A stretch of DNA of 63,574 bases, the filler included, from Methanobacteriota archaeon (GTDB lineage: Archaea > JACRDV01), in NCBI GenBank assembly GCA_024860865.1. It is 6 parts of 6 records of this genome, joined end to end, with 100 filler letters (N's around TTAATTAATTAA, not from the genome) between each part and the next. Parts side by side here need not be neighbours in the genome. Positions count along the whole stretch, not along the records: positions 37,262 to 54,896 come from JACRDV010000123.1; 5 more parts are not named here. One strand, given 5' to 3'. The notes below the pieces were generated by a model. That model made no database searches. It was not told the origin of the DNA and was given only the letters and a program-made list of their open reading frames with translations. Made by a program: the position numbers and the translations under genes. Positions 9,901 to 62,142 of this stretch are shown here, in pieces (the first letter of the stretch is position 1; the number at the start of each line of letters is the position of its first letter).

Positions 9901-11972
9901 AAATAATCGAAGTTTTTGCTGAAGAGGTTGAAATTGGAGAATATGTACCAGCACCGCGAAAACTTCCACTTACTAGAAGTAAATTCACTTTGGACACTGT
10001 TGATCCATGGCATTTTAATCTAAAAAGGATCAAAATTCCGAATAAATTGTCACCTTCATTTGGAAGATTATTAGGTTATCAAATTTCGGAGGGGCATGCT
10101 TATTTTAATGAAAGTAATCGATATGCTGAACTTGGTGTCACGAATTCTGATGGAAAAGTAATTAATGAAATGACTGCCCTATTTTTAGAGAAATTTTCGT
10201 TGAATCCTTATACCCAAGTAAAGAACAATTGGGGGACCAGCGTATCCGTTCTTAGGTATCCCTCAAGAATTCTATATGCGTTTTATCAGAAAAACTTCCC
10301 TGAAATATTGAAAGGCGCTACTGCTAAGCGAATCCCAAAAAATATCTTTGGCACTAATATAAGGTGCAAAATCGAGTTTCTTAAAGCAGCATTTATTGGA
10401 GATGGTTTTGTCGATAGCGAAAGATTTGGGTACAGAACAGCTTCCAGAAAACTCGCTGAAGACATGCAAGACGTTTTTTGGCAAATTGGAATTGACTCGT
10501 ACATATCAAGAGATGATAATTATTTCAAAGTAGTTATAACTGGTACGCAAAGTATGTTAAAATTCGCTAATAAAATTGTTGAAGATTGGGATTGGAGATA
10601 TAAAAGAATTCAAAGATTGATAGCAAGAAGCAAGAAAGTTAACCGCTCACATGATGTATCACCGCCAGATGTAGTTATTGTTTTAAAAGATATGCTTAAA
10701 AAAATGCACATGGATGATGGTTACTTAAATGAACATATTAAACAGAATTATGGAATAACCCTCCCAACACTGCAAAAATACATTAAAAGGTTAGAAAATT
10801 CAGCAACAAAAGCAAAGAAGAAAATATCGACCTTAAATAACGCCAGAGAAATCAGAAAGATTTCAAAAATATCGCTCCTTGAAGTTGCAAAAGCAATGCA
10901 ACTCTCGACGAGCATGATTACTTACATTGAGCGAAATAAAGCTTCCAGATATAGAGAACTGCTAATAAAAGTCAAAGAGCTTGCAACAGAAAAATTAAAA
11001 GAACTAGAAAAGTCGATTTCAAGAATAAAATATGTATTTCTGAACTCTGATTTGCGTTGGGGTAAAATTGTAAAGAAAGAAATTATTCCTAATGCTGGTA
11101 ACTATAAAAATAATTTTGTCTATGACGTCACGGTAGAGCCAACAAATACATTTGTGAGTGAGGGATTAGTTCTTCATAATTCTGTTTCTATTGCAAAAGC
11201 AGGTATTGTGGCTACATTAAACGCTCGCACAGCGATTCTTGCAGCTGCAAATCCAAAGTACGGAAGGTTTGACAAATACAAATCAATGGCGGAGCAAATT
11301 AATTTAAGCCCGACGCTGCTTTCTAGGTTCGATCTCATTTTCTTTGTTGAAGATGATCTCTCAACAACTAGAGAGATGGCAAAACATATTTTAAATTCAG
11401 TCGTTGAGCCGGAAAAAATCTTACCTCCTATTGAACCTGAATTTTTAAGAAAATACATCGCATACTCTAGACAGCACATTGTCCCTCAATTATCAAAAGA
11501 AGCTAGAGATAAGATCGAAACTTTCTTCACTGTTCTAAGAGAGCAAGTCGCTGGAGATAGAAGTTCTCCTGTTCCAATGACTGCACGCCAACTATGGGCG
11601 ATCATTAGGTTGTCCAGATCAAGCGCTAGAGTTAGATTAAGCAATGAGGTTACTCTTGAAGATGTTGGGCGAGCTATTAGATTAGTCAATTTATCGCTCA
11701 AGCAAGCAGGAATCGATTTTGAAACAGGGAAACTTGACATAGACAAAATTGAAATTGGAATCACAATGTCACAGCGCGATAAAATTGTTACAATTCTAGC
11801 AATTATTGAAGCAGTTGAGGATCTCCATGAAGGGTTGGCTCCACTTGAAGAAGTTTTAGCAGAGACTGAAAAGAGAGGGATTGAGCGGCGAGTAGCTGAA
11901 GAATTGATTGAGATGTTAAGGAAGCGGGGTGATCTGATTTCACCTCGCCATGGTATTATAAAAAAAGCATGA
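6912..11972 (+). CDS. mcm: MCM replicative helicase precursor with two inteins (1686 aa; 678 aa spliced)
   Basis: Zn finger CKRC..CTNC, Walker A GEPATGK/S, IDEFEKM, AAANPKYGRF, SRFDL arginine finger, C-terminal wHTH; RBS GAGGT plus TTG start. Confidence 0.97.
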   Translation: MDITTDIPQRLGFETKVSKFEEFLQRYCNENVLNLGLYPEKKSLIINFADLDKFDSALADELIKYPDQTIQAAEAALKQIISRHCELSNEVNFHVRFKNLFEKTPVREIRSEHIGKLIEVEGVVRKSTDVRPKVVKAIFRCKRCGEEISILQFEKFRTPFECTNCQRTGQFDFLIEKSNFIDAQKIRIQEPLEGLRGGEQPKQIDIYLEEDLTGKVTPGDPVEIVGILKSQRKFGDNSTVFEIFLDCNYVETLEKEFEELEITPEDEKAIKALANDPEIYRKIRDSIAPHIYGHDEIKEAIMLQLFSSPAIHLPDKARIRGDPHVILIGEPATGKCLTKDMELILRDGQVIKIGEFIENVFKSNKSKIFETSDGRQYIKINNLISALSLYPDLKIKQSNISIVWRRKYSGKILNIFTRSGRQIKVTPEHPLFTIQEGKVVTVPTRAFEVGDYLATPRRISIVGKSQELNIKIRRGKTNAFHISIPNQTTPGLMRFLGYLIGEGSSLERVARFSNSDPILINDFIKISKKLFGIVPHHYIYSRSRREVQITSIEVKEFIKKLGREILENSNKKALPCFVFKCSDEEIGNLVKAIFDGEATVSKTGKQIEITLGSRSLIKQLQILLLRMGIISYFRPTFKYATNSKNKIKRKYFRLWITGRDNLIAFYKNVGFQSQEKRKRLQRAISKLDLKIIPQTNVDVIPKIGKLLRNLRKASKLTKHDLGLSNVAQFRAYELGKKNPSRQKLLNIVFDLSRSQQLSNGGSLNKGIQNLKKLAESDIYWDKIIKIKETLTDEYVYDLTIEGTPNFIANGIIVHNSEILQFVANNLAPRGIYTSGKGSTKAGLTAAAVRDEFAEGSWSLEAGALVLADRGSCAIDEFEKMSEDDRSAMHQAMEQQSYHPSVEILFTGGEKIKIGTFVEGLFEKYSKRKIIGYNCEILPIKELNIQLWSTDFNKTFPINVNRVSRHKAPPYFIRLRFSNGREIIVTPSHPIYVSRNSKIIEVFAEEVEIGEYVPAPRKLPLTRSKFTLDTVDPWHFNLKRIKIPNKLSPSFGRLLGYQISEGHAYFNESNRYAELGVTNSDGKVINEMTALFLEKFSLNPYTQVKNNWGTSVSVLRYPSRILYAFYQKNFPEILKGATAKRIPKNIFGTNIRCKIEFLKAAFIGDGFVDSERFGYRTASRKLAEDMQDVFWQIGIDSYISRDDNYFKVVITGTQSMLKFANKIVEDWDWRYKRIQRLIARSKKVNRSHDVSPPDVVIVLKDMLKKMHMDDGYLNEHIKQNYGITLPTLQKYIKRLENSATKAKKKISTLNNAREIRKISKISLLEVAKAMQLSTSMITYIERNKASRYRELLIKVKELATEKLKELEKSISRIKYVFLNSDLRWGKIVKKEIIPNAGNYKNNFVYDVTVEPTNTFVSEGLVLHNSVSIAKAGIVATLNARTAILAAANPKYGRFDKYKSMAEQINLSPTLLSRFDLIFFVEDDLSTTREMAKHILNSVVEPEKILPPIEPEFLRKYIAYSRQHIVPQLSKEARDKIETFFTVLREQVAGDRSSPVPMTARQLWAIIRLSRSSARVRLSNEVTLEDVGRAIRLVNLSLKQAGIDFETGKLDIDKIEIGITMSQRDKIVTILAIIEAVEDLHEGLAPLEEVLAETEKRGIERRVAEELIEMLRKRGDLISPRHGIIKKA
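7917..9356 (+). mobile_element. Intein 1 in MCM Walker A (480 aa) with LAGLIDADG endonuclease and Xre-like HTH
   Basis: GK|CLTKD... start, TPEHP block B, LGYLIGEG and KAIFDGEA blocks, ends VYDLTIE...IIVHN|S. Confidence 0.93.
9597..11180 (+). mobile_element. Intein 2 in MCM after MEQQ (528 aa) with LAGLIDADG endonuclease and Xre-like HTH
   Basis: MEQQ|SYHP start, TPSHP, LGYQISEG and KAAFIGDG blocks, ends VYDVTVE...LVLHN|SVSIAKAG. Confidence 0.93.
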
Positions 11973-12389: not shown

Positions 12390-12489
12390 NNNNNNNNNNN
12401 NNNNNNNNNNNNNNNNNNNNNNNNNNNNNNNNNTTAATTAATTAANNNNNNNNNNNNNNNNNNNNNNNNNNNNNNNNNNNNNNNNNNNN
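12390..12489. other. Artificial contig linker
   Basis: N run with central TTAATTAATTAA (stops in all six frames). Confidence 0.99.
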
Positions 12490-12971
12490 ACTTGTTCGAT
12501 TTTTTCCACAAAGTCCTCTGCTCTTACTTTATATTCTGGATACCCTGTATTCGGAGGTTCCACTAGTTGTAGGCCAGCCATTTCAGCAGCAATCGCGGTT
12601 GAATAATGGCATAAGGGATCTGCTACTATCACGTTTGTGTAGTCTTTTGATCCTTCAACTTTCAAGCTTTCAGCTATTGTTCTAACAACTGCGAATTGGG
12701 CTGCGCGGCATCCAAATGTATGTTCTGCGACATCTCCGCCAAAAAATTTTGCAACGTCTTGAAGGAAGTCTCTCACAGGTGGCTTTGCAATAAGACTTGA
12801 TCTTCCTTCGAGACAGTCGAAGCATGCTGTATAACCAACTTTAGTCCATTCTTCCTCCAAAAGCTTTTTTTGCACTTCTTGAGGCACAATTCCTCCAGTC
12901 ATAATTGGTTGGATTATCGTATGCGTACGATATTGATTGCGCATTAATTTGTATTTCTGTATTTCAAGCAT
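12490..12971 (-). CDS. pscS: Sep-tRNA:Cys-tRNA synthase (SepCysS), 3' partial
   Basis: QPIMTGG, GYTACFDCLEGR (CxxC), KPPVRDF..DVAKFFG.D, GCRAAQF, HYST.IAAE.AG, GYPEY.V. Confidence 0.85.
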
Positions 12972-12975
12972 AACA

Positions 12976-14004
12976 TTACACTTTGATTCCAATTTTTTGT
13001 AAATATCTCACCATATTGTTAACAACTTCTTTGATTGTGATTTCCATGCTCTTCCCGCTCTGGATATCAGCACCTAATTCATCAACGCTTGCCATTATAG
13101 ACAAGTCTAACCAGTAGCCACGTTGGCTGGCGCGATAAGGTCGTGATAAAATTTTTTCAAGCTTTTTTGTAGCTTCTTCAGCTTTTTCATCTGAGGGCAT
13201 TTTCACTGGCAAGTGAACAGTAATAAACTTAAGCTTACCCTGGAAGTCCTTGTTGAGATACACTCTAACATCTTGATTACTAATTCTCCCAAAGAAGTAA
13301 TCAGTGCTTTTTGAGAGACCTATTTTTTCAAACTCATTTATTACTCCAATCGGTATATCGCTTACGCGACAGCCACATAGAGCACCGCCAGTTTTCACAA
13401 GTCTCTCTATACTTTCTGCCAACTGAATATAGATTTCAGGCGGCGCTCCAAAGATAACCTCATTATCTCGATAATCCGAAAACACAACTCTAGCGCCATT
13501 GCACAAGAATGATAAATTTGGTTTACCTTCCATGTAAGGTTTTGCGGTAAATTCACCACAAGCCGCTTCGCCTCTAAATCCAACAGACAAAAGCTCCTCT
13601 TTTCCAGCCTGCAGAAGGGTAGTTATATCCATCATTTGTCTAGGAGTGAGTATAGCTAAAATAACATCTGGTTCCTCAGTAATCTGGTCTATTGAAGCAA
13701 CCAAGACTTTCTTCGTATCTGCAGGTTTCACTCTTGGTTCGATATCTACATACACTGGCGCTGTAAAGCCGAGACAAAGTTCAGCAGTTGGGCATGTTTG
13801 ATCCTCTTTATTAAATAGTAGAGCTTTACCCTGCGAAGCAATTCTAACTATTTGGCAATATGCTGCTGGCTTTTCAGGTTTAAACTGGGGCTCTCCTTGA
13901 GAGCCGTCTTTCATAATTTTTATACCAACCAAATGGTATCTTAACCCAAGATACGCTCTGACAGTTTCGTCGATTTTGCCCCAATTTATTTGCTTCTTAG
14001 CCAC
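12976..14004 (-). CDS. DUF169 domain protein with an extra C-terminal domain
   Basis: LGLRYHLVGIK, YCQ.V..A..G, TCP.A...LGF, AACGE, SFLCNGAR; about 130 extra C-terminal residues. Confidence 0.75.
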   Translation of the reverse strand: MAKKQINWGKIDETVRAYLGLRYHLVGIKIMKDGSQGEPQFKPEKPAAYCQIVRIASQGKALLFNKEDQTCPTAELCLGFTAPVYVDIEPRVKPADTKKVLVASIDQITEEPDVILAILTPRQMMDITTLLQAGKEELLSVGFRGEAACGEFTAKPYMEGKPNLSFLCNGARVVFSDYRDNEVIFGAPPEIYIQLAESIERLVKTGGALCGCRVSDIPIGVINEFEKIGLSKSTDYFFGRISNQDVRVYLNKDFQGKLKFITVHLPVKMPSDEKAEEATKKLEKILSRPYRASQRGYWLDLSIMASVDELGADIQSGKSMEITIKEVVNNMVRYLQKIGIKV

Positions 14005-14198
14005 TCTTTTACCTCGTATAGAATTTTTTGCTTATAAAGTTTATAAAATAAACTCTTTATCAAACTACCTTACATTAAACTGCACGAATCTATTTAATTG
14101 CTACCGAAATAGAAATACGAAATACCCAAACTATTAAAAATATGGTACTTGAAAGGAAAATAAAGTAACTAGAGCGGCCGTAGTCTAGCCTGGTTAGG

Positions 14199-14221
14199 AG
14201 AGCTTTTTGCAACTCTAACAA
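14199..14221 (+). other. tRNA intron 1 (23 nt, D-stem, about position 23/24)
   Basis: BHB: central helix GTTA/TAAC, bulges GG^A and AA^A, intron stem GAG/CTC; removal restores GGAC of the D stem. Confidence 0.85.
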
Positions 14222-14235
14222 ACTTTGGCCTTCCA

Positions 14236-14257
14236 AGAGAAATATTTACTCGCAGAA
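14236..14257 (+). other. tRNA intron 2 (22 nt, canonical 37/38)
   Basis: Relaxed BHB: CTTC/GCAG (one mismatch), bulges CA^A and AA^A, stem GAG/CTC. Confidence 0.88.
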
Positions 14258-14298
14258 AGCCAATAACCCGGGTTCAAATCCCGGCGGCCGCACCATAA

Positions 14299-14544
14299 TT
14301 TAATTCAAACTTAGCGGGACCACTTTCAGTTCAACGCGTTGCCCGAAGGGTTTATGGTTACAGCTCACACAAGCGCGTTGGCAGGCGTGTCAGAAAATGC
14401 CACTATTCAGGCCTGATAGATCGGAGGGACTGCTTCGTTCTCGGTAAAGGAGTCGTTGCCCTTCCTGCTGAAACAGCAAAGGGCTTCATCGAGTTTCTAA
14501 AAAACAATCATGTAAAGGTTGTCCAGCACGAGGTTTATATGTAA
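14299..14544 (+). pseudogene. Start-less gene fragment, same family as the N-terminal domain of 6111-6662
   Basis: Reads RRVYGYSSHKR...HYSGLIDRRDCFVLGKGVVALPAETAKGFIEFLKNNHVKVVQHEVYM*; no start codon after the TAA at 14296-14298. Confidence 0.6.
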
Positions 14545-16416: not shown

Positions 16417-16507
16417 GTTTTCACATGTTATTTTTTAATAACAGTATTTTATAAATATAACGGACGTTATTTAAACCTAACAATTAAACTTACCGCAACT
16501 TGTAACG

Positions 16508-16535
16508 CGGGTTCAAATCCCGGCGGCCGCACCAT
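16508..16535 (+). repeat. 28-nt exact copy of the tRNA-Gly 3' end (att-like)
   Basis: CGGGTTCAAATCCCGGCGGCCGCACCAT identical to 14269-14296. Confidence 0.92.
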
Positions 16536-16563
16536 TAGCTGATTTAGGTTCAATATATTATGA

Positions 16564-25131: not shown

Positions 25132-26265
25132 TTACCCTGATGGGATAAAGCGCATACGGCTTTCATATCTTTCAAATGCATCTTTTAGACTTTGAAACCT
25201 CGCTATATCGCCTCTATCGTAGGTATAGCAGAGAATTACTGATGTAGATTTGGTATCAGTTATATTTACACCATAATGGATTTCTTTCATTTGAGTTCCT
25301 GCGCAGATCTTTTCCTCAAGTTCAGCATGGTCTATCTTTTCTGCGATTTTTTTAGTTGTTTTCAAAATGCAAAGTGCTTTCATTGGTATTTTTCCTTTTA
25401 CCCCTCTGATTGATGATCTACTGATTGCCTTTTCGATTAACTGATTTATGTTGATTTCCTCTTGACTAAAGAGTGTTGCGGTTTCTTGTGTTGTTCGAGA
25501 TACTGAAGTCACTCCTATATAACTTCCATAAACACTGCCTAGGTTTAGGGCAGTTAGAAAATCCTTAGCATCAATCACTTTGTATAAATCACCGTGCATT
25601 TTTTCCTCTAGGAGCACTCCGAACATTATATCCTTTAAAGATTCAGCGATAACTTGATTAAAATCTGGGAAAAGATTGTATAATGTCCTTGAAGTTTTTG
25701 CTTTGGTGGTGAGCAAGTCATTATCTACCGTAATCAACCCGTCGCAAAGTCTGTGCTTAAAAACGTTCTGCAACCACCACCATGCATTTCTAAAGGGTAA
25801 ATCGCCCTCAACAGTTGCAGGTAAAACACAAATTACTACTGTAGGTATTTTAAGTTCATTGCGAAGCGCATCTAGTATAGTTAAAGAGACTCCACAGCCT
25901 GTGCCTCCACCAGCACCTAAAATCATCATTGCAAATGGCACAGGATTTTTGGATAAAACCTCTCTCTCCATCCAATCCAAAAAGGACTGCGTATGCTCAT
26001 GAGCCACTTCATTAGCATCATATGGATTTTTGCCAAATCCTGCAGCAACATAATGTTCAAATCCCTTTTGATATGGCATAAAACCTCTTTGTTTTGATAT
26101 TCCAAGCCAAAAATCTCTGTTGATATGCTTTAGCTTTAGTAGGTCTTTAATGGTAGAATTGAGGGTAACTGGATAAGCTAGGCTAAAGATCTTTTTTTCC
26201 GAAAAGACATCATCGGCAAGCGTGCCACCACACTGGCCTACACCTACAAATAAATCTATAGATAT
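25132..26265 (-). CDS. Divergent tubulin/FtsZ-superfamily GTPase (CetZ/TubZ-like); start codon non-canonical or uncertain
   Basis: Frame open from 26298: LFVGVGQCGGTLAD (T1), NST..DL (T2), AGFGKNP (T3), GAGGGTGCG (T4 signature), VLP...EG, VDND, FNQVIA, VIDAKD (T7); the ORF-track ATG at 26079 misses T1 and T2. Confidence 0.88.
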   Translation of the reverse strand: MSIDLFVGVGQCGGTLADDVFSEKKIFSLAYPVTLNSTIKDLLKLKHINRDFWLGISKQRGFMPYQKGFEHYVAAGFGKNPYDANEVAHEHTQSFLDWMEREVLSKNPVPFAMMILGAGGGTGCGVSLTILDALRNELKIPTVVICVLPATVEGDLPFRNAWWWLQNVFKHRLCDGLITVDNDLLTTKAKTSRTLYNLFPDFNQVIAESLKDIMFGVLLEEKMHGDLYKVIDAKDFLTALNLGSVYGSYIGVTSVSRTTQETATLFSQEEININQLIEKAISRSSIRGVKGKIPMKALCILKTTKKIAEKIDHAELEEKICAGTQMKEIHYGVNITDTKSTSVILCYTYDRGDIARFQSLKDAFERYESRMRFIPSG

Positions 26266-26385
26266 CCCTTCTCTGATTATTTCGGTATCAGCCCAAATTC
26301 AGATTATCTTTAAAAGTGTTATTAATATTATGTATACCAAGGTAATATAAAAATAACCCTCGTAAAAAGTGGCGTACTTAGAATT

Positions 26386-30051: not shown

Positions 30052-30151
30052 NNNNNNNNNNNNNNNNNNNNNNNNNNNNNNNNNNNNNNNNNNNNTTAAT
30101 TAATTAANNNNNNNNNNNNNNNNNNNNNNNNNNNNNNNNNNNNNNNNNNNN
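30052..30151. other. Artificial contig linker
   Basis: N run plus TTAATTAATTAA. Confidence 0.99.
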
Positions 30152-31427: not shown

Positions 31428-31763
31428 ATGGATTCTACTGAAAAAATGGAAAGAACATCGGTGCTCCTGCCACATAAGTATTTAAAAGAAATCGATCAAA
31501 TAGCTGAGGAACAAGGGTTAGATCGAACGACTTTAGTTCGCCAGTTGTTGATTTCTGGAATTAAAGAATATAAAATAAAGTTAGCAGTTGAGCTCTATCG
31601 CGCTGAAAAAATTTCACTGGGCAAAGCTGCAGAAATTGCCGATATTTCAATTTGGGAAATGATGGATATACTTAGAGAACAAAAAATTCCGCTTGCTTAT
31701 CGGCTCTCTGATGCGCGTGAGGAAATAAAAAGGATACTGAAAGAACATAAAATTTCGATATAA
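31428..31763 (+). CDS. UPF0175 family antitoxin (RHH plus HTH)
   Basis: DRTTLVRQLL..G, AVELYRAEKISLGKAAEIADISIWEM. Confidence 0.88.
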   Translation: MDSTEKMERTSVLLPHKYLKEIDQIAEEQGLDRTTLVRQLLISGIKEYKIKLAVELYRAEKISLGKAAEIADISIWEMMDILREQKIPLAYRLSDAREEIKRILKEHKISI

Positions 31764-31807: not shown

Positions 31808-32482
31808 TTATAATCCTAATGCACTAATAACTCCGGCAATTCCTTCTCCATCTCTACAACTTGTTTTCACTACTTTTGCATTTGGATTTATCGCATAAAC
31901 ATCTCTTTCTAATTTTTCTACAGCAACTTCCATCGCACTTGCCAAATCTATTTTATTGATAACAACTACATCTGTGCCCATAAAAATGAAAGGGTGTTTA
32001 ACCACCATATAAGGTCCTTCTGTTACACTAATTACAACAATTCGCTTTTCTGAACCTAGAGGAAAATCCGCTGGGCAAATTAGGTTTCCAACATTTTCAA
32101 TAAATAAGAGGTCCACATTGTTTAAATCGACTTTCTGAAGCGCCTTTTTCACAAGATTTGCATCTAGGTGGCATTCCTTTCCAGTATTTATTTGAATGAC
32201 TTCAACACCATGCCTTCCAACTCTATTTGCATCTATAGTGGTTGTTAGGTCGCCATTAAAAACAACAATTTTATATTTATTTTTTAATTTTTGGACTAGC
32301 AATTCAATAAGAGATGTTTTTCCAGATCCTATAGAACCCAAAATATCTATTGCTTTAACTCCATATTTTTTGAGTAATTCCTTGTTTTCTTCCGCAAGTT
32401 TTTCATTTGCTTTAAGCAAATCTGTTTCAAGCTCTATGTCATAAATTTCTCCTTCTTCTGCTTTGATTATTTCTTTAATCAC
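31808..32482 (-). CDS. hypB: Hydrogenase nickel incorporation GTPase
   Basis: GSIGSGKT, INTGKECHLDA, IENVGNLICPA.F.LG, SVTEG, NKID. Confidence 0.96.
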   Translation of the reverse strand: MIKEIIKAEEGEIYDIELETDLLKANEKLAEENKELLKKYGVKAIDILGSIGSGKTSLIELLVQKLKNKYKIVVFNGDLTTTIDANRVGRHGVEVIQINTGKECHLDANLVKKALQKVDLNNVDLLFIENVGNLICPADFPLGSEKRIVVISVTEGPYMVVKHPFIFMGTDVVVINKIDLASAMEVAVEKLERDVYAINPNAKVVKTSCRDGEGIAGVISALGL

Positions 32483-32491
32483 AATTAAACC

Positions 32492-32722
32492 TCATGTCGA
32501 TGTAATATCAGCGCTTAACATTTCGTTCCATAATTGGATCGTTTCTCTAGCTGCTTCCTCGTCTAATACTTGAATTGCAAAGCCAGCATGAACTATAACA
32601 TACTCTCCAACTTGAACATCTACTAGAGAAATGTTTACTTCTCTTGTTGTTCCTTGTCCAAAATCAACTTTTGCAAAATTTCCTTTTTTCTTAATTACTT
32701 TCCCTGGAATGGCTAAGCACAT
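32492..32722 (-). CDS. hypC: Hydrogenase maturation chaperone
   Basis: MCLAIPGKV...VGEYVIVHAGFAI. Confidence 0.97.
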   Translation of the reverse strand: MCLAIPGKVIKKKGNFAKVDFGQGTTREVNISLVDVQVGEYVIVHAGFAIQVLDEEAARETIQLWNEMLSADITST

Positions 32723-32767
32723 AACAATCAGTTTTATCTCTTTAGATATTATTTTTCAAAAAATAAA

Positions 32768-35035
32768 TCATTTTTCATAGCTAGTTGCAATCGCTTGTCC
32801 AAATGAAATTCCACCATCTCCAGGCGGTACTTGGACATTTGTGACAAACTTTAGCCCAGCCATTTCTACTTCCTTTTTTATCGCCAAAGTAATAAACTCG
32901 TTGTATGCAACTCCTCCTGAAAACCCGATTGTATCAATACCCAATTTCTTTGCCTCTTCTATAGCAAGTTGAGCTAGACCTATTGCAATGTAAGATTGTG
33001 CCGAGCATGCTAAGTCAGCAACGGGATATTTGCTCATATTATCATAAATTTGACTTAAAAGATAAGTAGTGTTTAAAGTATTTCCATTTGTTTCAGGAGA
33101 TAACTGAAGCGCATCCTTCCCTTTTATTGCTACTGACTCTAATTTCATTGCTGGTTCGCCTTCATAAGTCCGCTCATAACATATTCCTAATAGAGCCGAA
33201 ACAGCATCCAAAACTCTGCCACAACTTGTTGTTTTGATGAAATTCCCTTGCTTGAGTTGCTTAAGAACAATCTCGACCTCTTTTTCGCCATGTGGAAAGT
33301 GTTTAACATTTGAGAGTAGCCATTTTTCTATATCTGTTGCACTATGAAGTATTCCAACGACCATCCTTGCAGGATATTTAGTCGCTAGGTCGCCGCCGAT
33401 CATAGGTTGCTCTTGGAGATGCCCAACACGTTGGAACCCATTGGAATTACAAAATAAAACTTCACCTCCCCAAACATTGCCGTCTGAACCGTAACCAATG
33501 CCATCGCAGGCAATGCCAATAATCTCTGAAATATTATGCTCGCCCATTAATGATGCGATGTGTGCATGATGATGTTGAACTGGGATAACATTGCATCCAA
33601 GTTTATTCCCTAACTCATGGGCGAGTTTTGTTGTATGAAATCTAGGATGCAAGTCACAGGCCACAACTTCGACTTTACTATTTGTTAACTTTATCAAGTG
33701 ATTTGTGGCACTTTTTAAGAATTCAAAAGTTTCAAACTTCTCTATATCTCCAATATGTTGAGAAATAAAAGCTTTGTTTCCTAGTAGAACGCATGTAGTT
33801 GCATTGAGCTCTGCGCTAATTCCTAATGTACAATGGTTTATAGAATACTTCAAATGGATTGGTGCTGGTGCATATCCTCGAGACCTACGAATTATGCTTG
33901 GAATTTTATTATTAATGCGAACAACTGAATCATCACATCGCTGGGCAATTTTTCTATCGTGAAATAGGAAGAAGTCAACTACAGAACCTAGTTCCTTTAT
34001 AGCCCGGTCATTTTCCTTAATAATTGGCTCATTTGGGGGGTTTGCGCTGGTCATTATAAAAGCAGGTTCTTGCACTTGATCAAACAGCATTGAGTGTAAA
34101 CCAGTATATGGAAGCATAACTCCAATGTTATGTAAACCTGGCGAGATTAAATCTGAAAGATAATAATCATCACTTTTCCTCAATAAAACAATCGGTTTTA
34201 TATACGAAGTTAAAAGCTTGGCTTCCTCCTCGCTTACTTCTGCAAATGTCTTTATCGTTTCTAAATCGCGAGCCATTATTGCAAATGGTTTTTGGGATCT
34301 ATGCTTAGTTTTTCTCAATCTTTTTACCGGGTCGGACCTAGTAGTTGCAGCTGCAATATGAAAACCACCATTGCCTTTTATTGCAACAATATAGCCTTCT
34401 TCAAGCAACCTCCCAGCTTCCCTAATAGGATCTCCGCGTTTAATGAGTTCTCCACCGTTATTTGTTAAAAATATCTTTGGGCCACATTTTGAACATGCAA
34501 CTGTTTGCGCATGAAATCTTCGATTCGATGGATCAGTATATTCTATTTTACATTCGTTGCACATTAAAAATTCTTGCATGGTGGTGTTAGGTCTATCGTA
34601 AGGAAGTTCCTCAATTATACTGTACCTGGGACCACAGTCTGTACACGTGATGAAAAAATAATCGTAACGTCTATTATTTGAATCTCTAAGCTCAGCTAAA
34701 CATTCGTTACAAATTGAGACATCTGGTGGAATTACTGAACCAGAGAGCTCGCCACCTTCAGAGCTTTTAAGAATTGTAAACTTTTCAAACTCTTTCTTTT
34801 CTTCAGAATAATTTGTGATTAGATCATAAATTTGAGCTAAAGGGGGCTTTTTTTCCTCTAAATCGGTGAGAAATTGTTTAATATTATTATCATTTCCTTC
34901 AACAACTATTTCAACACCAGCGTCTCCTCTATTCCGTACAAAGCCAACCAATTTATTTTTTACGGCAATTCGATAGATAAATGGCCGAAAACCTACACCC
35001 TGGACAATTCCTTTAATAGTAATCTCGGCACGCAA
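32768..35035 (-). CDS. hypF: Carbamoyltransferase HypF
   Basis: GIVQGVGFRPF, Zn fingers CTDCGPRY and RRFHAQ..AC..CGP, QHHHAH, DGG.S.GQ. Confidence 0.97.
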   Translation of the reverse strand: MRAEITIKGIVQGVGFRPFIYRIAVKNKLVGFVRNRGDAGVEIVVEGNDNNIKQFLTDLEEKKPPLAQIYDLITNYSEEKKEFEKFTILKSSEGGELSGSVIPPDVSICNECLAELRDSNNRRYDYFFITCTDCGPRYSIIEELPYDRPNTTMQEFLMCNECKIEYTDPSNRRFHAQTVACSKCGPKIFLTNNGGELIKRGDPIREAGRLLEEGYIVAIKGNGGFHIAAATTRSDPVKRLRKTKHRSQKPFAIMARDLETIKTFAEVSEEEAKLLTSYIKPIVLLRKSDDYYLSDLISPGLHNIGVMLPYTGLHSMLFDQVQEPAFIMTSANPPNEPIIKENDRAIKELGSVVDFFLFHDRKIAQRCDDSVVRINNKIPSIIRRSRGYAPAPIHLKYSINHCTLGISAELNATTCVLLGNKAFISQHIGDIEKFETFEFLKSATNHLIKLTNSKVEVVACDLHPRFHTTKLAHELGNKLGCNVIPVQHHHAHIASLMGEHNISEIIGIACDGIGYGSDGNVWGGEVLFCNSNGFQRVGHLQEQPMIGGDLATKYPARMVVGILHSATDIEKWLLSNVKHFPHGEKEVEIVLKQLKQGNFIKTTSCGRVLDAVSALLGICYERTYEGEPAMKLESVAIKGKDALQLSPETNGNTLNTTYLLSQIYDNMSKYPVADLACSAQSYIAIGLAQLAIEEAKKLGIDTIGFSGGVAYNEFITLAIKKEVEMAGLKFVTNVQVPPGDGGISFGQAIATSYEK

Positions 35036-35235: not shown

Positions 35236-35655
35236 TTAACTAATAGGATTTCTGAATTTTATCTCTCTGTTGTCAAGTTTTATACCCTTCAGATTGATAA
35301 TTTTTTTATCATTGGTCCACATTTCAGCTATTTTGTTATGGAGATAACAACCGATAATTAGAGAATCTCTGCCACCAAGATTATATTTCTCAGCGAGAGC
35401 CAAACAAAATGAAGTAGTTGTTTTTGTTTGGTTTATAAAAATTGTTCTCGAATCATTGATAAAATTTACTAGCTTTTTTCTTGCATCACTTGGTTTCATT
35501 TTGCTTATGAAAACTAAAGTGTGATAAGTTTCATGGATTGCAGTTGGATTAGTATACCAATTTTCCAATTTTGAAATGGCGTTTATCACCATTTTATTTT
35601 CAGGATACTTAGGATCCAAAAAATAAACTAAAATATTTGTATCTAGACCGATCAT
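35236..35655 (-). CDS. VapC/PIN toxin
   Basis: MIGLDTNILVY, IHETYH, LGGRDSLI, TND. Confidence 0.88.
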   Translation of the reverse strand: MIGLDTNILVYFLDPKYPENKMVINAISKLENWYTNPTAIHETYHTLVFISKMKPSDARKKLVNFINDSRTIFINQTKTTTSFCLALAEKYNLGGRDSLIIGCYLHNKIAEMWTNDKKIINLKGIKLDNREIKFRNPIS

Positions 35656-35669
35656 TTTTAAGCCCAATT

Positions 35670-37161: not shown

Positions 37162-37261
37162 NNNNNNNNNNNNNNNNNNNNNNNNNNNNNNNNNNNNNNN
37201 NNNNNTTAATTAATTAANNNNNNNNNNNNNNNNNNNNNNNNNNNNNNNNNNNNNNNNNNNN
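37162..37261. other. Artificial contig linker
   Basis: N run plus TTAATTAATTAA. Confidence 0.99.
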
Positions 37262-37376: not shown

Positions 37377-37783
37377 ACGAGCGCACTTTTGTAATGATTA
37401 AGCCCGACGGCGTGGCTAAAGATTGTATCGGCGAGATAATTAAACGCTTTGAGCAAAATGGGTTTAAAATTTTGGCCATGCGAATGGAAAAACTAACGCG
37501 AGAAAAGGCTGAGGAGTTGTATTCTCCTCATAAAGGCAAGCAGTTTTTTAATGAATTAGTTGGTTTTGCAACTTCCGGTCCAGTTGTTTTGATGATTATT
37601 GGAGGGGACAATGCTGTAATTAGAACCAGGGAGATAATCGGGGCAACAGATCCGAAAAAAGCTACTAAAGGGACAATACGCGGTGATTTTGGCACAAGCA
37701 TAACACATAATGTAATTCATGCTGCCGATTCAAAAGAAAATGCTCGAAGAGAAGGTAAACTCTTTTTCAATGAATACTTTTAA
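37373..37783 (+). CDS. ndk: Nucleoside diphosphate kinase
   Basis: ERTFVMIKPDG, GATDP..A..GTIRGDFG, NVIHAADS. Confidence 0.97.
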   Translation: MNERTFVMIKPDGVAKDCIGEIIKRFEQNGFKILAMRMEKLTREKAEELYSPHKGKQFFNELVGFATSGPVVLMIIGGDNAVIRTREIIGATDPKKATKGTIRGDFGTSITHNVIHAADSKENARREGKLFFNEYF

Positions 37784-37913
37784 TAATGAACTCTTAATAG
37801 ATAAGCTTAGGAAAAGCTAATCTACGATTCACGTTCTAAAGATAGCAAATTTGGCGTTCTTTCAAAAGGTTGAAGAAGAAGTTCATGTTTTAAAAAAATT
37901 TAGAGGAGTTAAC

Positions 37914-39722
37914 ATGATTCGTCAACTTATAGTGGCAGTGCTCGGTCATGTCGATCACGGAACGCGTTAAAGCTATAGCTTAACGCCCGGTAAGACAAGT
38001 TTACTCGACAAGATCAGAGGCACAGCGGTTGCTGAAAGAGAGGCGGGTGCAATAACCCAGCATATAGGAGCAACAGAAATTCCAATTGAAGTTATCAAAA
38101 AAATTTGTGGTCCATTTATCGAACAGCTTAAAGCAAAGATAACAATACCAGGTCTACTCTTCATAGATACTCCGGGTCATCGAGCTTTTACAAATTTAAG
38201 AAGGAGAGGTGGTGCGTTAGCGGATTTAGCGATTTTAGTCGTTGATGTCACTGCTGGCTTTCAGCCTCAAACGATTGAAGCGATTAGCATTCTTAAGAGA
38301 TACAAAACGCCGTTCATTATCGCTGCTAATAAAATTGATTTGATTTACAAATGGCGTATCTTTGAAACGACTTCTTTTCTTGAAAGCTTTAAAAAACAAG
38401 AATTAGAAGTGCAAGGGTATCTTGAAAAGAAAATCTATGAGATGGTTGGAAAACTTTACGAGCAAGGTTTTAATTCAGAGCGCTTTGACCGAGTAAAGGA
38501 TTTCACTAAACAGTTAGCAATTGTGCCGGTTAGTGCCAAAACGGGAGAGGGTATACCTGAACTTTTAATGATGCTCACCGGCTTAGCTCAACAATTCCTT
38601 GAGCAACAGCTCAAGATTGAGGTTACTGGGCCTGGAAAAGCCACAGTGCTTGAAGTCAAAGAAGAAGTTGGCCTAGGAAAAACCATCGATACAATTCTCT
38701 ATGATGGTACTATTAGAAAGGGAGAAACAATTGTAATTGGTGGACTAAAAGAACCTATCGAAACAAAAGTCCGGTCAATTCTAAAACCTCAACCATTAGA
38801 CGAAATTCGAGATCCGCGATTTAAATTTAAATCAGTTAATGAAGTTCAAGCTGCAGCAGGTATTAAAATTTCAGCTCCGAATTTAGATAATGCAATTGCA
38901 GGAGCTCCATTAAGGATTGTTAGAGAAGAAAGTGAGATTGAAAAATTAAAGGAAGAAGTTCAAAAGGAAATAGAAGAAGTAAGAATTGAAACGGACATAA
39001 CCGGAATTATTTTAAAGGCTGATGCTATTGGTTCGCTTGAGGCGTTAGTCAATGAACTCAAGGGATTAAATATCCCAATTAGAATTGCAGATGTTGGGGA
39101 TGTTTCAAAGCGAGATATAGTTGAAGCTCATACTGTTAAAGAGACTGACCCTATTAAGGGAATAGTTCTTGCATTCAATGTTAAAATTTTGCCTGATGCA
39201 AAGGTTGAGGCAGAGAGATTAGGCGTTCTAGTTTTAGCTGGAGATATAATTTATAAGTTAATTGAGGATTATCAAAAGTGGGCTGAAGAGACTAGAAAAG
39301 AAATGATCAGAAAACAACTCGAGGCTATTGTAAGACCTGCGAAAATTAAGCTATTGCCTGGCTTTGTTTTTCACGTGAGCAAACCTGCCATAGTAGGGGT
39401 TGAAGTTTTAGCCGGTGCGATAAAACCCGAGTATAAACTAATCAAAAAAGATGGCTATTTAGTGGGCGAATTAAAGAGTATTCAGGATAAGGGGCAATCG
39501 CTGAAAGAGGCATCGATTGGGCAGAAAATAGCTATTTCAATAGAAGGACCAACCGTTGGGCGACAAATCAAAGAAGGGGATGTTCTTTATACCGATATTC
39601 CGCCTCGACAAATTGATTTGATTGAGGAAAAACTGAAAGATGTTTTAACGGCTGAAGAAATTCAAACTTTGCAGGAAATTAAACAAATTAAAGAGAAATT
39701 AGCAGCTGAGGCAAAGAAATAG
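37914..39722 (+). CDS. infB: Translation initiation factor aIF5B/IF2, join(37914..37962,37993..39722), 592 aa after removing a 30-nt insert
   Basis: RBS GAGGAG; MIRQLIVAVLGHVDHG[insert]KTSLLDKIRGT...EAGAITQHIGA, DTPGH, ANKID, VSAKTGEG; no other stop in frame. Confidence 0.93.
37963..37992 (+). other. Putative bulge-helix-bulge mRNA intron (30 nt) in the aIF5B P-loop
   Basis: CGCGTTAAAGCTATAGCTTAACGCCCGGTA; in-frame TAA at 37968-37970; stem GCGTTAA/TTAACGC; central helix ACGG/CCGG; bulges AA^C and TA^A. Confidence 0.85.
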
Positions 39723-50681: not shown

Positions 50682-50990
50682 ATGGACATCGATCAAATTA
50701 AAAAGGCAATAAAAGAAGGAAGAATAAATATCACCGAACATGCTGATGAAGAACTCGCTAATGACAACATCTCAAACGAATTGCTTTATCAGTCTGTTTT
50801 AAATGGCGAGATAATTGAAGATTATCCAAACGATTTTCCATTTCCAAGTTGCCTTATACTCGGAAAAGATGAAAAAGGCAGGCCTATTCATAGTGTATGG
50901 GCTTTTGCAGAAAAGTATAATATAGCGATACTTATTACAGCATATATTCCAGCTATTAATAAATGGGTAGATTATAAGCGGAGGAAATGA
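50682..50990 (+). CDS. DUF4258 family putative toxin
   Basis: ITEHADEE, GEIIEDYP.D.PFPSCLILG, PIHSV, ITAY.P...W. Confidence 0.88.
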   Translation: MDIDQIKKAIKEGRINITEHADEELANDNISNELLYQSVLNGEIIEDYPNDFPFPSCLILGKDEKGRPIHSVWAFAEKYNIAILITAYIPAINKWVDYKRRK

Positions 50991-54896: not shown

Positions 54897-54996
54897 NNNN
54901 NNNNNNNNNNNNNNNNNNNNNNNNNNNNNNNNNNNNNNNNTTAATTAATTAANNNNNNNNNNNNNNNNNNNNNNNNNNNNNNNNNNNNNNNNNNNN
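54897..54996. other. Artificial contig linker
   Basis: N run plus TTAATTAATTAA. Confidence 0.99.
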
Positions 54997-57751: not shown

Positions 57752-58165
57752 TCACGGTAGGATTGAGAATCCATACTGTTTAAAATGTTCATCGTAAGCA
57801 AATGCTGTTTGTATTCCCTCTGCCTCCATAATTGCAAAAGATGTACAATCAGTAAAACTAAAATCCTTGTCAGAATACTCTTTAAAAATTTTCCATGCTT
57901 TTTCTTCAACTTCCTCAGAAATCCTAAGTATTTTTATAGCCTTAGACTTTCGCATTTTTTCTCCAAAAGTAACGGCAGCTTTATGGTTACATGCATATCT
58001 AAGTAAAGTCAATGTTTCATCAATAGCATAATTGGAAGTATACAAAAAGCGGAACTTTGTCCCCTTTTTTCGCAGCTCATCCCTAAAATCAATTGCTGAG
58101 ATATGATTCTTATCAGACTCATCTTCAAGGGCTAGAAAAGCGCTAGTATCTATGAACAGTAGCAC
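57752..58165 (-). CDS. VapC/PIN toxin
   Basis: FIDTSAFLA, TSNYAIDET, FSFTDCTSF, DEHF. Confidence 0.92.
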   Translation of the reverse strand: MLLFIDTSAFLALEDESDKNHISAIDFRDELRKKGTKFRFLYTSNYAIDETLTLLRYACNHKAAVTFGEKMRKSKAIKILRISEEVEEKAWKIFKEYSDKDFSFTDCTSFAIMEAEGIQTAFAYDEHFKQYGFSILP

Positions 58166-61424: not shown

Positions 61425-61524
61425 NNNNNNNNNNNNNNNNNNNNNNNNNNNNNNNNNNNNNNNNNNNNTTAATTAATTAANNNNNNNNNNNNNNNNNNNN
61501 NNNNNNNNNNNNNNNNNNNNNNNN
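61425..61524. other. Artificial contig linker
   Basis: N run plus TTAATTAATTAA. Confidence 0.99.
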
Positions 61525-62142
61525 AATTGTTATGTTTTCCCATCTGCCTGTTCCAGTGTATGTGTAAGTGGTTGTACCACCAGGTTGGTTTTGATTGGTA
61601 CCAGAGTAAGTGTAAGATGTTTTATAAAGCCCAGCAAGTGGAAATGTAAGTGTTCTACTTTTGTTTGTAACGTTTGCATTTGAAGAAGTCCAAGCTGGGT
61701 ATTTAACAACACCCTTTGCACTAACTCTTAGCGACCAAACAGCGCCATCAGCTCTTGTTGGATATTGGGTTGTGTTACTGAAATAAGCAGTGTTAGAGTT
61801 TATTGCTCCTGTGTTGTTACTCCCAGACAAAACTATCTCCGGGGTTTCGTAGTAACCAGTTAGCTCTACTGCACTTGGATCTGCTGTGACAGTTGTTGTT
61901 ACAAATGCAAGGTTTCCAATTTGAGCTGCAACATCCGCGCCAGCAATTGTATCGCTTGCTCCGCCAGGAGCTTTCTCACCGACAACTACTACGCTGGAAG
62001 GAGCACCAGTGGTTGTGTCAACGAAGCCGAATTTGGTGTAATCTCCGCTATAGCTAACAGGGGCAGCAACAGCACCTGCCAATGTGATACCGAGCATCAA
62101 AGCACTCGTAGCTGCAGCAGTGATTTTTCTGAAAACGCTCAT
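61525..62142 (-). CDS. S-layer protein (Methanococcales/Thermococcales-like N-terminus), 3' partial
   Basis: RBS GGAGGT; RKITAAATSALMLG.TLA signal; VVVGEKA...SD.IAGADVAA; many NxS/T sequons. Confidence 0.8.

Follow-up and report, generated by a model that had tools for sequence, protein, structure and literature searches.

How can an archaeon make a translation initiation factor from a gene whose reading frame is broken by a stop codon within the P-loop of the GTPase domain? This question is raised by a locus on the plus strand of the window (by which we mean the whole stretch of DNA analysed, 63,574 nucleotides with filler). Starting with the ATG at position 37914, which has a GGAG-type purine-rich stretch 6 nt on its 5′ side, the frame reads MIRQLIVAVLGHVDHG, then TR*SYSLTPG, and then KTSLLD. 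Re-reading the frame bears out what a first-pass annotation of this DNA had described, namely GHVDHG and KTSLLD separated by 30 nt that carry an in-frame TAA at 37968–37970. Judging from the sequence, splicing of a BHB intron is the best-supported explanation of this insert, and a probable one.

An insert in the P-loop of the aIF5B gene

By its sequence the gene is identified as coding for the translation initiation GTPase aIF5B/IF-2. Downstream of the insert the frame is open over 575 aa (37995–39722), and Pfam finds in exon 2 the domains PF00009 (GTP_EFTU), PF03144 (GTP_EFTU_D2), PF11987 (IF-2), and PF14578 (GTP_EFTU_D4), that is, the G domain, domain II, the IF-2 domain, and domain IV of the aIF5B domain set. 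The identity to full-length aIF5B proteins amounts to 62–63% in an HMM-ranked homologue search. The N-terminus encoded by exon 1 is colinear with MIRQ..GHVDHGKT of the relatives, and the G1 motif becomes contiguous only once the insert is removed. Removal in silico yields a stop-free ORF of 592 aa with a contiguous GHVDHGKT; in its alignment with two relatives of 593 aa the first 60 columns are free of gaps, with 45 and 47 identical positions. The earlier claim that the 592-aa frame is intact apart from the insert agrees with this alignment.

By sequence the register of the insert is ambiguous, since 37958–37987 up to 37963–37992 are equal. The protein is restored solely by a deletion of 30 nt in one of these six equivalent registers (last exon base 37957–37962), and the BHB rule selects one of the six and removes exactly 37963–37992. 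With this choice, the Lys codon is split after its first base: the putative exon 1 (37914–37962) comprises the start codon, 16 codons, and this base, and the putative exon 2 (37993–39722) extends from the two remaining bases to the TAA stop. Translation of the unspliced mRNA would stop after 18 residues at the TAA of the insert. TAA is the commonest stop in the window, where it ends 26 of the 46 Pfam-supported ORFs; thus it is a genuine stop codon in this organism.

Gene callers overlook the interruption, as had been noticed at first pass. The table-11 ORF list for aIF5B begins only with the TTG at 38340. There is no in-frame ATG, GTG, or TTG between the TAA at 37968–37970 and position 38340, so that a restart of translation would cost 115 conserved and open codons of the G domain. 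The public gene call of a 99%-identical strain is likewise too short, at 437 aa, and has no GTPase domain. The promoter and terminator scan used a bacterial-type consensus and is uninformative for an archaeon.

The insert is real DNA, as two studies yielded independent assemblies in which its sequence is the same. Contigs from four DNA runs were compared, of which two (X3 and X4) do not span the insert. It is bridged by contigs of the other two runs (X1 record 4, 1409 nt; X2 record 9, 13719 nt; depths ∼8 and ∼12), which show no indel or substitution between 37914 and 38081. The substitutions that separate these assemblies from the window number 6 and 19 over the covered 1409 and 2501 nt, respectively. 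Both carry the insert unchanged, which speaks against the assembly error that the first description had named as a possible refutation. The core of the insert is present as a single copy in the window when up to 3 mismatches are allowed, and it has no match in the viral contigs or in the 56 loci compared. A search of Rfam with 37850–38100 gave three matches at E ≤ 10, all of chance level.

Predicted fold, cut sites, and a tRNA gene with two introns

The fold that had been proposed for the insert (a GCGTTAA/TTAACGC stem, a central helix with three of four pairs, two 3-nt bulges, and a weak exon–exon stem) was reproduced. The 5′ strand of the central helix H lies in the exon (37957–37960) and is predicted to pair with the 3′ strand in the intron (37987–37990) in three of four positions, with a mismatch of A37957 and G37990; these three pairs have a probability of 0.95–0.99 in all four folding contexts. 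The 5′ three-base bulge (37961–37963), with the predicted cut after 37962, is unpaired with a probability of 1.0 in all contexts. It is followed by the intron hairpin h′ (37964–37986) with a 7-bp stem (37964–70/37980–86), a 9-nt loop, and the possibility of two more G–C pairs; the five outer pairs have a probability of 1.0 each, the two inner ones of 0.65 and 0.32. The 3′ three-base bulge is formed by 37991–37993, with the predicted cut after 37992. Its closure on the exon side consists of C37956–G37994 and U37955–A37995 only (h = 2 bp), with a pair probability of ∼0.01. This bulge is unpaired with a probability of 0.74–0.79 in the 73-nt context and of 0.08–0.11 in contexts of at least 127 nt, in which a small hairpin (37990–38004) competes at the 3′ site. 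In the same longer contexts a distal exon–exon helix (37949–38010; 37949–54/38005–10) encloses the whole motif at a distance of 3 nt and 15 nt from H with a pair probability of 0.86–1.0, and is extended by imperfect pairing of 37918–37948 with 38011–38037.

The spacing of the motif, i.e. two 3-nt bulges with a helix of four positions between them, is exactly that of a BHB, and on the 5′ side it conforms to a textbook H-B-h′, which stays stable in all the folding contexts. According to this structure model the motif is a relaxed HBh′-type BHB and not a strict hBHBh′. We took the rule that the cut falls after the second base of each bulge from the available text of two papers (PMC4090602; PMC5829648). 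Cutting in this way restores the frame in silico: precisely 37963–37992 are removed and H-G-K-T becomes contiguous, in accordance with the cut sites put forward at first pass. The 127-nt fold has an energy of −37.7 kcal/mol (z −2.2) and 6 of 200 shuffles were as good. We discarded the exon–exon duplex as a sign of structural selection: it reaches −27.3 kcal/mol in the window, yet 5 of 36 distinct intron-less relatives have an equal or stronger one.

How much weight the geometry can bear depends on its frequency. When motifs with H of at least 3/4, h′ of at least 7, h of at least 2, and an intron of 12–60 nt were searched, with G·U allowed, the window contained 101 on the plus strand and 68 on the minus strand, and ten block shuffles yielded 48–75 motifs under the same criteria. 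Taken alone, a BHB-like geometry as good as this one often arises by chance. For a random insert, the chance of a motif with the length defined by the protein and in one of the six registers is ∼1e-4, as calculated arithmetically from the motif counts. If the same hairpin is dropped at random sites, a central helix of at least 3 pairs arises in 10% of the cases, and such a helix together with a 2-bp outer helix in 1.7%. A mechanical scan for BHB motifs joining broken frames was abandoned, as 5236 matches on the plus strand alone are too unspecific.

The same window contains a tRNA gene that serves as an internal control. A tRNA-Gly(UCC) gene with two BHB introns is located on the plus strand at 14174–14292 and is recognized by the Rfam tRNA model with 43.9 bits and two insertions. 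Intron 1 (14199–14221, 23 nt) is placed at the non-canonical position 23/24 and has an H of 4/4, an h′ of 3 bp, and an h of 1 bp; intron 2 (14236–14257, 22 nt) is placed at position 37/38 and has an H of 3/4, an h′ of 3 bp, and the anticodon stem as h. After both introns are cut by the rule given above, ARAGORN reports a canonical 77-nt tRNA-Gly(tcc), whereas the unspliced gene gives none. An alternative reading by ARAGORN, a Gly-GCC tRNA with one 42-nt intron, was rejected because its D-stem contains a mismatch and its variable loop is long; its borders show no BHB. The organism demonstrably uses BHB introns in a tRNA.

The aIF5B insert resembles archaeal tRNA introns (BHB and HBh′, including those at non-canonical positions) in architecture and cut rule. 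In fact it shares with both tRNA-Gly introns the 3-nt bulge, the central helix of four positions, and the intron hairpin, and all three are built in the same order of one bulge base, stem, 9–10-nt loop, stem, 4-nt H strand, and two bulge bases. The differences are that the aIF5B insert is part of an mRNA that has no tRNA body, that its intron stem has 7 bp instead of 3 bp, and that its outer exon–exon helix adjoining the 3′ bulge has only 2 bp.

Taking fold, frame, and tRNA gene together, we consider it fairly likely that the 30 nt from 37963 to 37992 are a tRNA-type (BHB) mini-intron of the aIF5B pre-mRNA which is spliced by EndA and RtcB. We infer the following course of cleavage and ligation. 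Exon bases 37958–60 would pair with intron bases 37987–89, so that the central helix adjoins the 7-bp intron hairpin; the 5′ splice site would be presented in a well-formed 3-nt bulge and the 3′ site, four helix positions further on, in a bulge or loop of 3 nt. The host EndA would cut after 37962 and after 37992, and an RtcB-type ligase would join the exons and probably circularize the 30-mer. The codons of GHVDHGKT would thereby become contiguous and the 592-aa aIF5B could be made, whereas the unspliced mRNA would give the 18-residue peptide only. Lineages with a loop-bearing α4 EndA and many disrupted tRNA genes are described in the available text of PMC5829648. Among the 59 ORFs of the window that were scanned, neither an EndA gene nor an RtcB-type ligase gene was found; EndA is present in four of five genomes of distant relatives. 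That the host has both enzymes and uses them is supported indirectly by its intron-bearing tRNA gene.

Selection, relatives, and rival explanations

Although a stop codon interrupts it, the gene is not decaying but is kept under purifying selection. Exon 2 harbors 20 distinct strain SNPs, 15 of which are synonymous and 5 non-synonymous, at an expected synonymous share of 31.7% (p 8.7e-5); the run X2 alone gives 11 synonymous out of 16 (p 0.0026). As all these strains carry the insert, the synonymous excess rejects neutral drift after the insertion.

The insert was absent from all 22 genome loci (of 29 returned) and from all 19 metagenome loci (of 22 returned) that were examined at this site. 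With no insert in these 41 related loci, the variable insert with covarying BHB pairs that the first-pass annotation had proposed to look for did not turn up and there is no covariation support; the two strains with the insert are identical there. All 119 other protein homologues among the matches listed are full-length and have the GTPase domain. With a full-length aIF5B as query we also surveyed the phylum of locus L001 in 401 genomes, including the unpublished G246, G247, G325, G336, G363, and G399. Matches were obtained in 397 genomes (404 matches), and no interrupted aIF5B was found among the 150 matches listed of the 404. Among the matches listed, 15 have one internal stop and all of these reach query position 592–593, past the natural end; in L066, the one such match checked, the stop falls on residue 600 of 601. 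The best named matches of aIF2-gamma (Methanococci, Methanobacteria, Thermococci) and of aIF5B (Methanopyrus, Hadesarchaea, Hydrothermarchaeota), at 57–68%, are euryarchaeal-type. An affiliation with DPANN was dropped, as the pattern-based loci are at most 55–58% identical, the HMM-ranked matches reach 62–63%, and the named matches are of the type just mentioned. Pfam coverage of the 59 ORFs of the window revealed no second interrupted gene; the only oddity among them is an ORF of the tubulin family that lacks a canonical start.

Could the stop codon simply mark a gene that was recently destroyed? At its core the insert has an almost perfect DNA palindrome with the direct repeat CGG on either side, as might be left by a replication or repair hairpin or as the footprint of a mobile element. 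Such an insertion into the P-loop, absent from the relatives examined, could have created a young pseudogene, and the frequency of BHB-like geometry by chance, with a compatible helix at 10% of random landing sites, fits this explanation as well. We nevertheless regard it as unlikely: the synonymous excess stems from insert-bearing strains, the 575 downstream codons are still open, exon 1 is intact and colinear with the relatives, and both studies assembled the allele with the insert. The designation of aIF5B as essential, made at first pass, points in the same direction. It is documented for Haloferax volcanii, where according to the available text deletion of aIF5B was not achieved (PMC3828320), but is not documented for the archaeon studied here. 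A related possibility is that a second intact aIF5B or a minority allele free of the insert supplies the factor and that the selection signal is a trace of the past or of recombination with intact alleles. The aIF5B copy count is known from the 63.5-kb window only and contigs drop rare variants, so that an insert-free minority could exist. However, the window has a single aIF5B, and the protein search is empty between 99% and 63% identity, which means that no close second form of aIF5B is on record. Other contigs touching this stretch match just 34–58 nt of the conserved G domain. In the survey of the phylum, seven genomes had two matches, and the five checked turned out to be genes split at contig ends. 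We therefore find a source of the factor elsewhere improbable, slightly more so than a young pseudogene.

Two further explanations leave the RNA unspliced. Known cases of translational bypassing come from T4 gene 60 and certain yeast mitochondria and, to our knowledge, not from archaea. In the present case the peptidyl-tRNA-Gly would take off at GGA (37959–61) and land 30 nt further on before AAG; a stop soon after the Gly codon, a gap that contains a stable hairpin, and another Gly codon, GGT (37989–91), directly before the Lys codon would suit such a hop. The type of bypass seen in T4 gene 60 needs matched take-off and landing codons and a stop directly after the take-off codon. Here GGA and GGT differ and the stop is two codons past the take-off codon; in addition, the organism has BHB introns in its tRNA-Gly gene. 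This makes a hop very improbable. Hardly any credit can be given to an artefact of assembly or sequencing, which two independent assemblies from two studies at depths of ∼8 and ∼12 contradict, or to read-through of the TAA. The insert is in frame, so that read-through would keep the frame and add 10 residues to the P-loop, but TAA terminates 26 of 46 ORFs, and the Walker A spacing GxxxxGK[ST] would be lost with ten residues added between G and K.

Relation to known introns, splicing systems, and inteins

If the insert is spliced as a BHB intron, its nearest counterparts are the introns in the cbf5 pre-mRNA of Crenarchaeota, which have relaxed motifs (Watanabe 2002; Yokobori 2009, PMC2738675). 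As far as described in the text available, these introns are also short, lie inside an archaeal protein gene, often have a relaxed BHB-type motif, depend for their removal on the tRNA splicing endonuclease together with a ligase, and fall into the size range of tRNA introns (PMC2738675). The aIF5B insert differs in its host gene and its site, the GTPase P-loop, and in its lineage, which is not crenarchaeal. In addition, its splicing is predicted only, and it is confined to one sparsely sampled lineage. The insert would work like the cbf5-type intron family but is not a member of it. A euryarchaeal splicing endonuclease acting on an mRNA is reported from Haloferax volcanii, where EndA cleaves the HVO_1309 mRNA in vivo and in vitro (Schwarz 2020, PMC7714728); in the parts of that report available this is one additional mRNA that is cleaved, whereas in aIF5B excision would be needed to make the protein. 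In the literature searched, BHB introns internal to coding sequences occur only in crenarchaeal cbf5, plus the Haloferax substrate HVO_1309. This is in line with the first-pass remark that archaeal mRNA introns are known mainly from crenarchaeal cbf5. The accompanying remark that no described aIF5B intron is known can be upheld to the extent that the same search found no report combining aIF5B, intron, and splicing endonuclease.

The splicing of HAC1 and XBP1 in eukaryotes by IRE1 and RtcB or Trl1 offers a functional parallel. According to the text available, a short intron in a coding mRNA is removed independently of the spliceosome, the endonuclease reads stem–loops, the exons are joined by a tRNA ligase, and the product depends on splicing (PMC4090602; PMC13149111). 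The enzyme and the motif are different, as IRE1 takes the place of EndA, and regulation by stress is proven for HAC1/XBP1, whereas any regulation of aIF5B is purely speculative. One may speculate that splicing provides a regulatory coupling of translation initiation to the tRNA splicing machinery. On balance we lean, with modest conviction, towards the broader reading that a core initiation-factor mRNA outside Crenarchaeota carries a spliced BHB intron which makes aIF5B dependent on EndA and ligase. The unspliced, stop-containing transcript would possibly be a switch tying initiation capacity to the state of tRNA processing, an archaeal counterpart to HAC1/XBP1, and the P-loop site shared with inteins would mark conserved GTPase motifs as landing pads for self-removing elements at the RNA and the protein level.

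If this holds true, a second and unrelated host gene in another lineage would show that mRNA splicing by EndA and RtcB is not a crenarchaeal oddity and that stop-containing inserts are possible in essential genes. Gene callers would silently shorten such genes, as illustrated by the lost GTPase domain of the sister strain, and there is a case for scanning the broken conserved genes of archaeal MAGs for relaxed BHB motifs before they are called pseudogenes. For experiments the locus offers a precise and cheap target, namely one junction and one 30-nt circle.

The P-loop of aIF5B is also known to harbor inteins in other archaea. One protein (P0101) reads GHVDHGK, intein, TTLLDK, and in another (P0074) the intein ends before TTLLDK. 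These self-removing elements occupy almost the same place as the insert. In contrast, the inteins comprise more than 100 residues, follow the Lys codon, and are removed at the protein level, whereas the insert has 10 codons including the TAA, is placed ahead of or inside the Lys codon, and would have to be removed from the RNA; it has no in-frame protein-splicing domain free of stops as an intein would. The two kinds of element suggest that this conserved P-loop site tolerates inserts which are removed before the protein must work.

The interrupted aIF5B reading frame

The aIF5B reading frame opens at the ATG at position 37914, reading MIRQLIVAVLGHVDHG, and is followed by ten in-frame codons including a TAA (37968–37970) before it resumes with KTSLLDKIRG... 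and continues for 575 open codons up to position 39722; the aIF5B domain set is found on this downstream frame. Joining 37962 to 37993 yields an ORF of 592 amino acids without stop, which aligns gap-free over the first 60 columns with the two full-length proteins nearest to it (593 aa, 62–63% identity). The repair of the frame requires a deletion of exactly 30 nt, for which six sequence-equivalent registers exist and no other deletion works, and the cleavage rule for a bulge–helix–bulge (BHB) structure picks one of the six. The first-pass annotation had proposed, from the sequence alone, that this rule excises exactly 37963–37992 (+); this excision indeed leads to the stop-free ORF, and the coordinates and base pairs given in that annotation were all correct on re-checking. 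Gene callers do miss the gene as claimed: no in-frame ATG, GTG or TTG lies between the TAA and 38340, and the protein called in a 99%-identical sister strain has only 437 aa. The latter lacks the GTPase domain and is the single shortened one among the best 120 aIF5B proteins, the other 119 having 575–775 aa and the domain present. A restart at 38340 would forfeit the P-loop, the switch regions and the DxxG motif, although this stretch of 115 codons is conserved and free of stops.

Five public DNA runs contain the stretch or part of it, and the four best were compared with the window as assembled contigs. A contig of run X1 spans 37727–39135 (1409 nt, six substitutions) and a 13.7-kb contig of run X2, from a separate study, spans the entire 2.5-kb stretch, differing by 19 substitutions and a 1-nt deletion (37888). 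Since both bridge the insert with zero indels and zero substitutions across 37914–38081, the contigs, as far as such evidence reaches, exclude an assembly artefact, which the first-pass annotation had named as a possible error. An A-rich tract just 5′ of the aIF5B start (37888–37898) differs between strains: X2 has the 1-nt deletion here, and A>G at 37893 as well as 37898. If the mRNA is leaderless or has a short leader, its promoter/TATA region may lie in this tract.

Predicted fold of the insert and comparison with a tRNA-Gly

In all folds three G–C pairs of the central helix (37958–37960/37987–37989) form with a probability of 0.95–0.99, the bulge 37961–37963 is unpaired and the 7-bp intron stem is present; the 5′ site is predicted to be a clean helix–bulge–intron stem motif. 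The fourth pair of the central helix is an A·G mismatch, and the exon-side closure of the 3′ bulge (37991–37993) consists of two pairs only, with a probability of 0.01. Of the fold as originally claimed, the stem, the central helix with three of four pairs and the 5′ bulge stand, and the exon–exon pairing that closes the 3′ bulge, already described there as weak, is weak. In contexts of at least 127 nt the energy model favours a small hairpin at the 3′ bulge (37990–38004), and a longer exon–exon helix (37949–37954/38005–38010, extended outward) surrounds the whole motif; the 127-nt fold has a z of −2.2. Because of the mismatch and the weak 3′ closure the motif is modelled as a relaxed BHB, a type reported to require broad-specificity endonucleases (PMC5829648, PMC4090602).

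The geometry alone proves little, because the window holds 101 and 68 motifs of equal or better geometry on its two strands versus 48–75 in shuffles; a scan for BHB motifs joining broken frames was dropped as hopelessly unspecific. What is informative is that the motif coincides with the length and register set by the protein; by our arithmetic a random insert would do so with a chance of ∼1e-4. The same hairpin landing at a random site gives a compatible motif in 10% of cases, or 1.7% with a 2-bp outer helix. The strength of the exon–exon duplex is matched or exceeded in 5 of 36 intron-less relatives.

Rfam detects a tRNA with two insertions at 14174–14292, which ARAGORN in default mode missed in the window. 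Both insertions show BHB geometry: 23 nt at position 23/24 (14199–14221; central helix 4/4, intron stem 3 bp, outer helix 1 bp) and 22 nt at position 37/38 (14236–14257; central helix 3/4, intron stem 3 bp, the anticodon stem as outer helix). Cutting both after the second bulge base gives a canonical 77-nt tRNA-Gly(UCC). ARAGORN offers an alternative with anticodon GCC and a single 42-nt intron, but its cloverleaf is poorer and, on inspection, its borders show no BHB. Because removal of both introns by the BHB rule restores a canonical tRNA, the host organism splices mini-introns built like the aIF5B insert: 14236–14257 likewise has three of four central pairs, and 14199–14221, which lies at a non-canonical position, likewise has nearly no outer helix.

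Selection, rival explanations and relatives

Among 24 strain-variable places 20 fall in exon 2 (37993–39722), and 15 of these are synonymous and 5 non-synonymous. Against a neutral expectation of 31.7% synonymous, computed with the observed transition/transversion mix, the excess is significant (p = 8.7e-5; X2 alone p = 0.0026). Because the insert is shared by all compared strains, the constraint acted with the insert present, unless the insert spread by recombination. Of 46 Pfam-supported ORFs in the window 26 end in TAA, the most frequent stop, which is therefore not a sense codon, and in Haloferax volcanii a deletion of aIF5B was not obtained (PMC3828320). Because of this selection, the true stop, the missing restart codon before 38340 and the undeletable Haloferax gene, a working aIF5B gene would have to have the insert removed or skipped.

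We consider a BHB mini-intron spliced by EndA and RtcB the best explanation and a likely one. The in-frame TAA would also fit a young pseudogene; this decay of the copy, an alternative already raised in the first-pass annotation, is countered by the synonymous excess in exon 2, and we regard it as improbable. Slightly less probable still is that aIF5B function comes from another copy or allele, for example, a minority allele free of the insert. Translational bypass would skip the insert but is very unlikely, and least credit goes to read-through or, given the bridging contigs, an artefact. The leftover probability is assigned to mechanisms that we have not thought of.

The variable insert that was to be looked for in related aIF5B genes did not appear: none of the 22 genome loci examined carries it (29 returned; L016 and L024, without N-terminus, and L025–L029, bacterial or partial, were left out), nor do the 19 metagenome loci examined (22 returned; the fragments L049–L051 left out). 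In a 401-genome sample of one phylum, six unpublished genomes included, no internally interrupted aIF5B occurred among the 150 matches listed. A second copy of the insert core was found neither in the window nor in viral contigs or the 56 loci searched. As no aIF5B among the best 120 proteins has an identity above 63% and below 99%, sampling of the lineage is very thin; the putative intron is either of recent origin or has simply not been sampled elsewhere. The named best matches are Methanopyrus, Hadesarchaea and Hydrothermarchaeota for aIF5B, and Methanococci, Methanobacteria, Thermococci and Hadesarchaea for aIF2-gamma. Two other aIF5B loci (L011, L041) match over 2.5 kb, hinting that the gene holds another insertion at a different place.

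In another archaeal aIF5B (P0101) an intein separates GHVDHGK from T in the same P-loop, and in P0074, whose N-terminus is missing, an intein ends immediately before TTLLDK. These inteins sit one codon away from the insert, which suggests by analogy that the site tolerates self-removing elements.

That archaeal mRNA introns are mainly those of crenarchaeal cbf5 (PMC2738675) agrees with the accessible literature, which adds only one Haloferax mRNA, HVO_1309 (PMC7714728). A search of articles on aIF5B, intron and splicing endonuclease was empty, in line with an undescribed aIF5B intron. Literature on BHB introns in DPANN was found, none concerning mRNA, and the titles and abstracts of the BHB, RtcB and mRNA-splicing literature since 2015 name no new mRNA intron.

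Other features of the window

The 63.6-kb window has a G+C content of 36.6% and carries housekeeping genes (TBP, S19e, S6e, S24e, eIF6, FtsY, SRP54, aIF2-gamma, MCM, Kae1 and others). Genes of hydrogenase maturation (HypF and a HypB/UreG-type GTPase) and several small toxin–antitoxin-type genes (PIN, UPF0175, DUF4258), all dispersed between housekeeping genes, jointly occupy 31808–35035 (−), 35236–35667 (−), 57752–58165 (−), 31428–31763 and 50682–50990. The N stretches at the record joins (12390–12489, 30052–30151, 37162–37261, 54897–54996 and 61425–61524) each consist of two runs of 44 N around 12 bases, and at least two cut into ORFs (12438–12992 and 61477–62142).

A 42-nt direct repeat of the tRNA-Gly 3′ end (14264–14305) lies 2239 nt downstream (16503–16544, 88% identical). 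It could be a tRNA 3′ half, or an att-type scar left by an integrated element; a PfkB-family kinase and small ORFs are encoded in between, and no integrase was seen. The tubulin/FtsZ-family ORF at 25132–26298 (−) has a stop-to-stop frame of 388 aa with no canonical start near its beginning, and the first ATG/GTG/TTG (26079) is found only downstream of the N-terminal GVGQCGG, which is conserved. This suggests a non-canonical start codon or another peculiarity. The MCM helicase gene (6912–11972, +; 1686 aa) contains two intein-splicing stretches and two LAGLIDADG domains, and these intein-type insertions break up the MCM P-loop domain.
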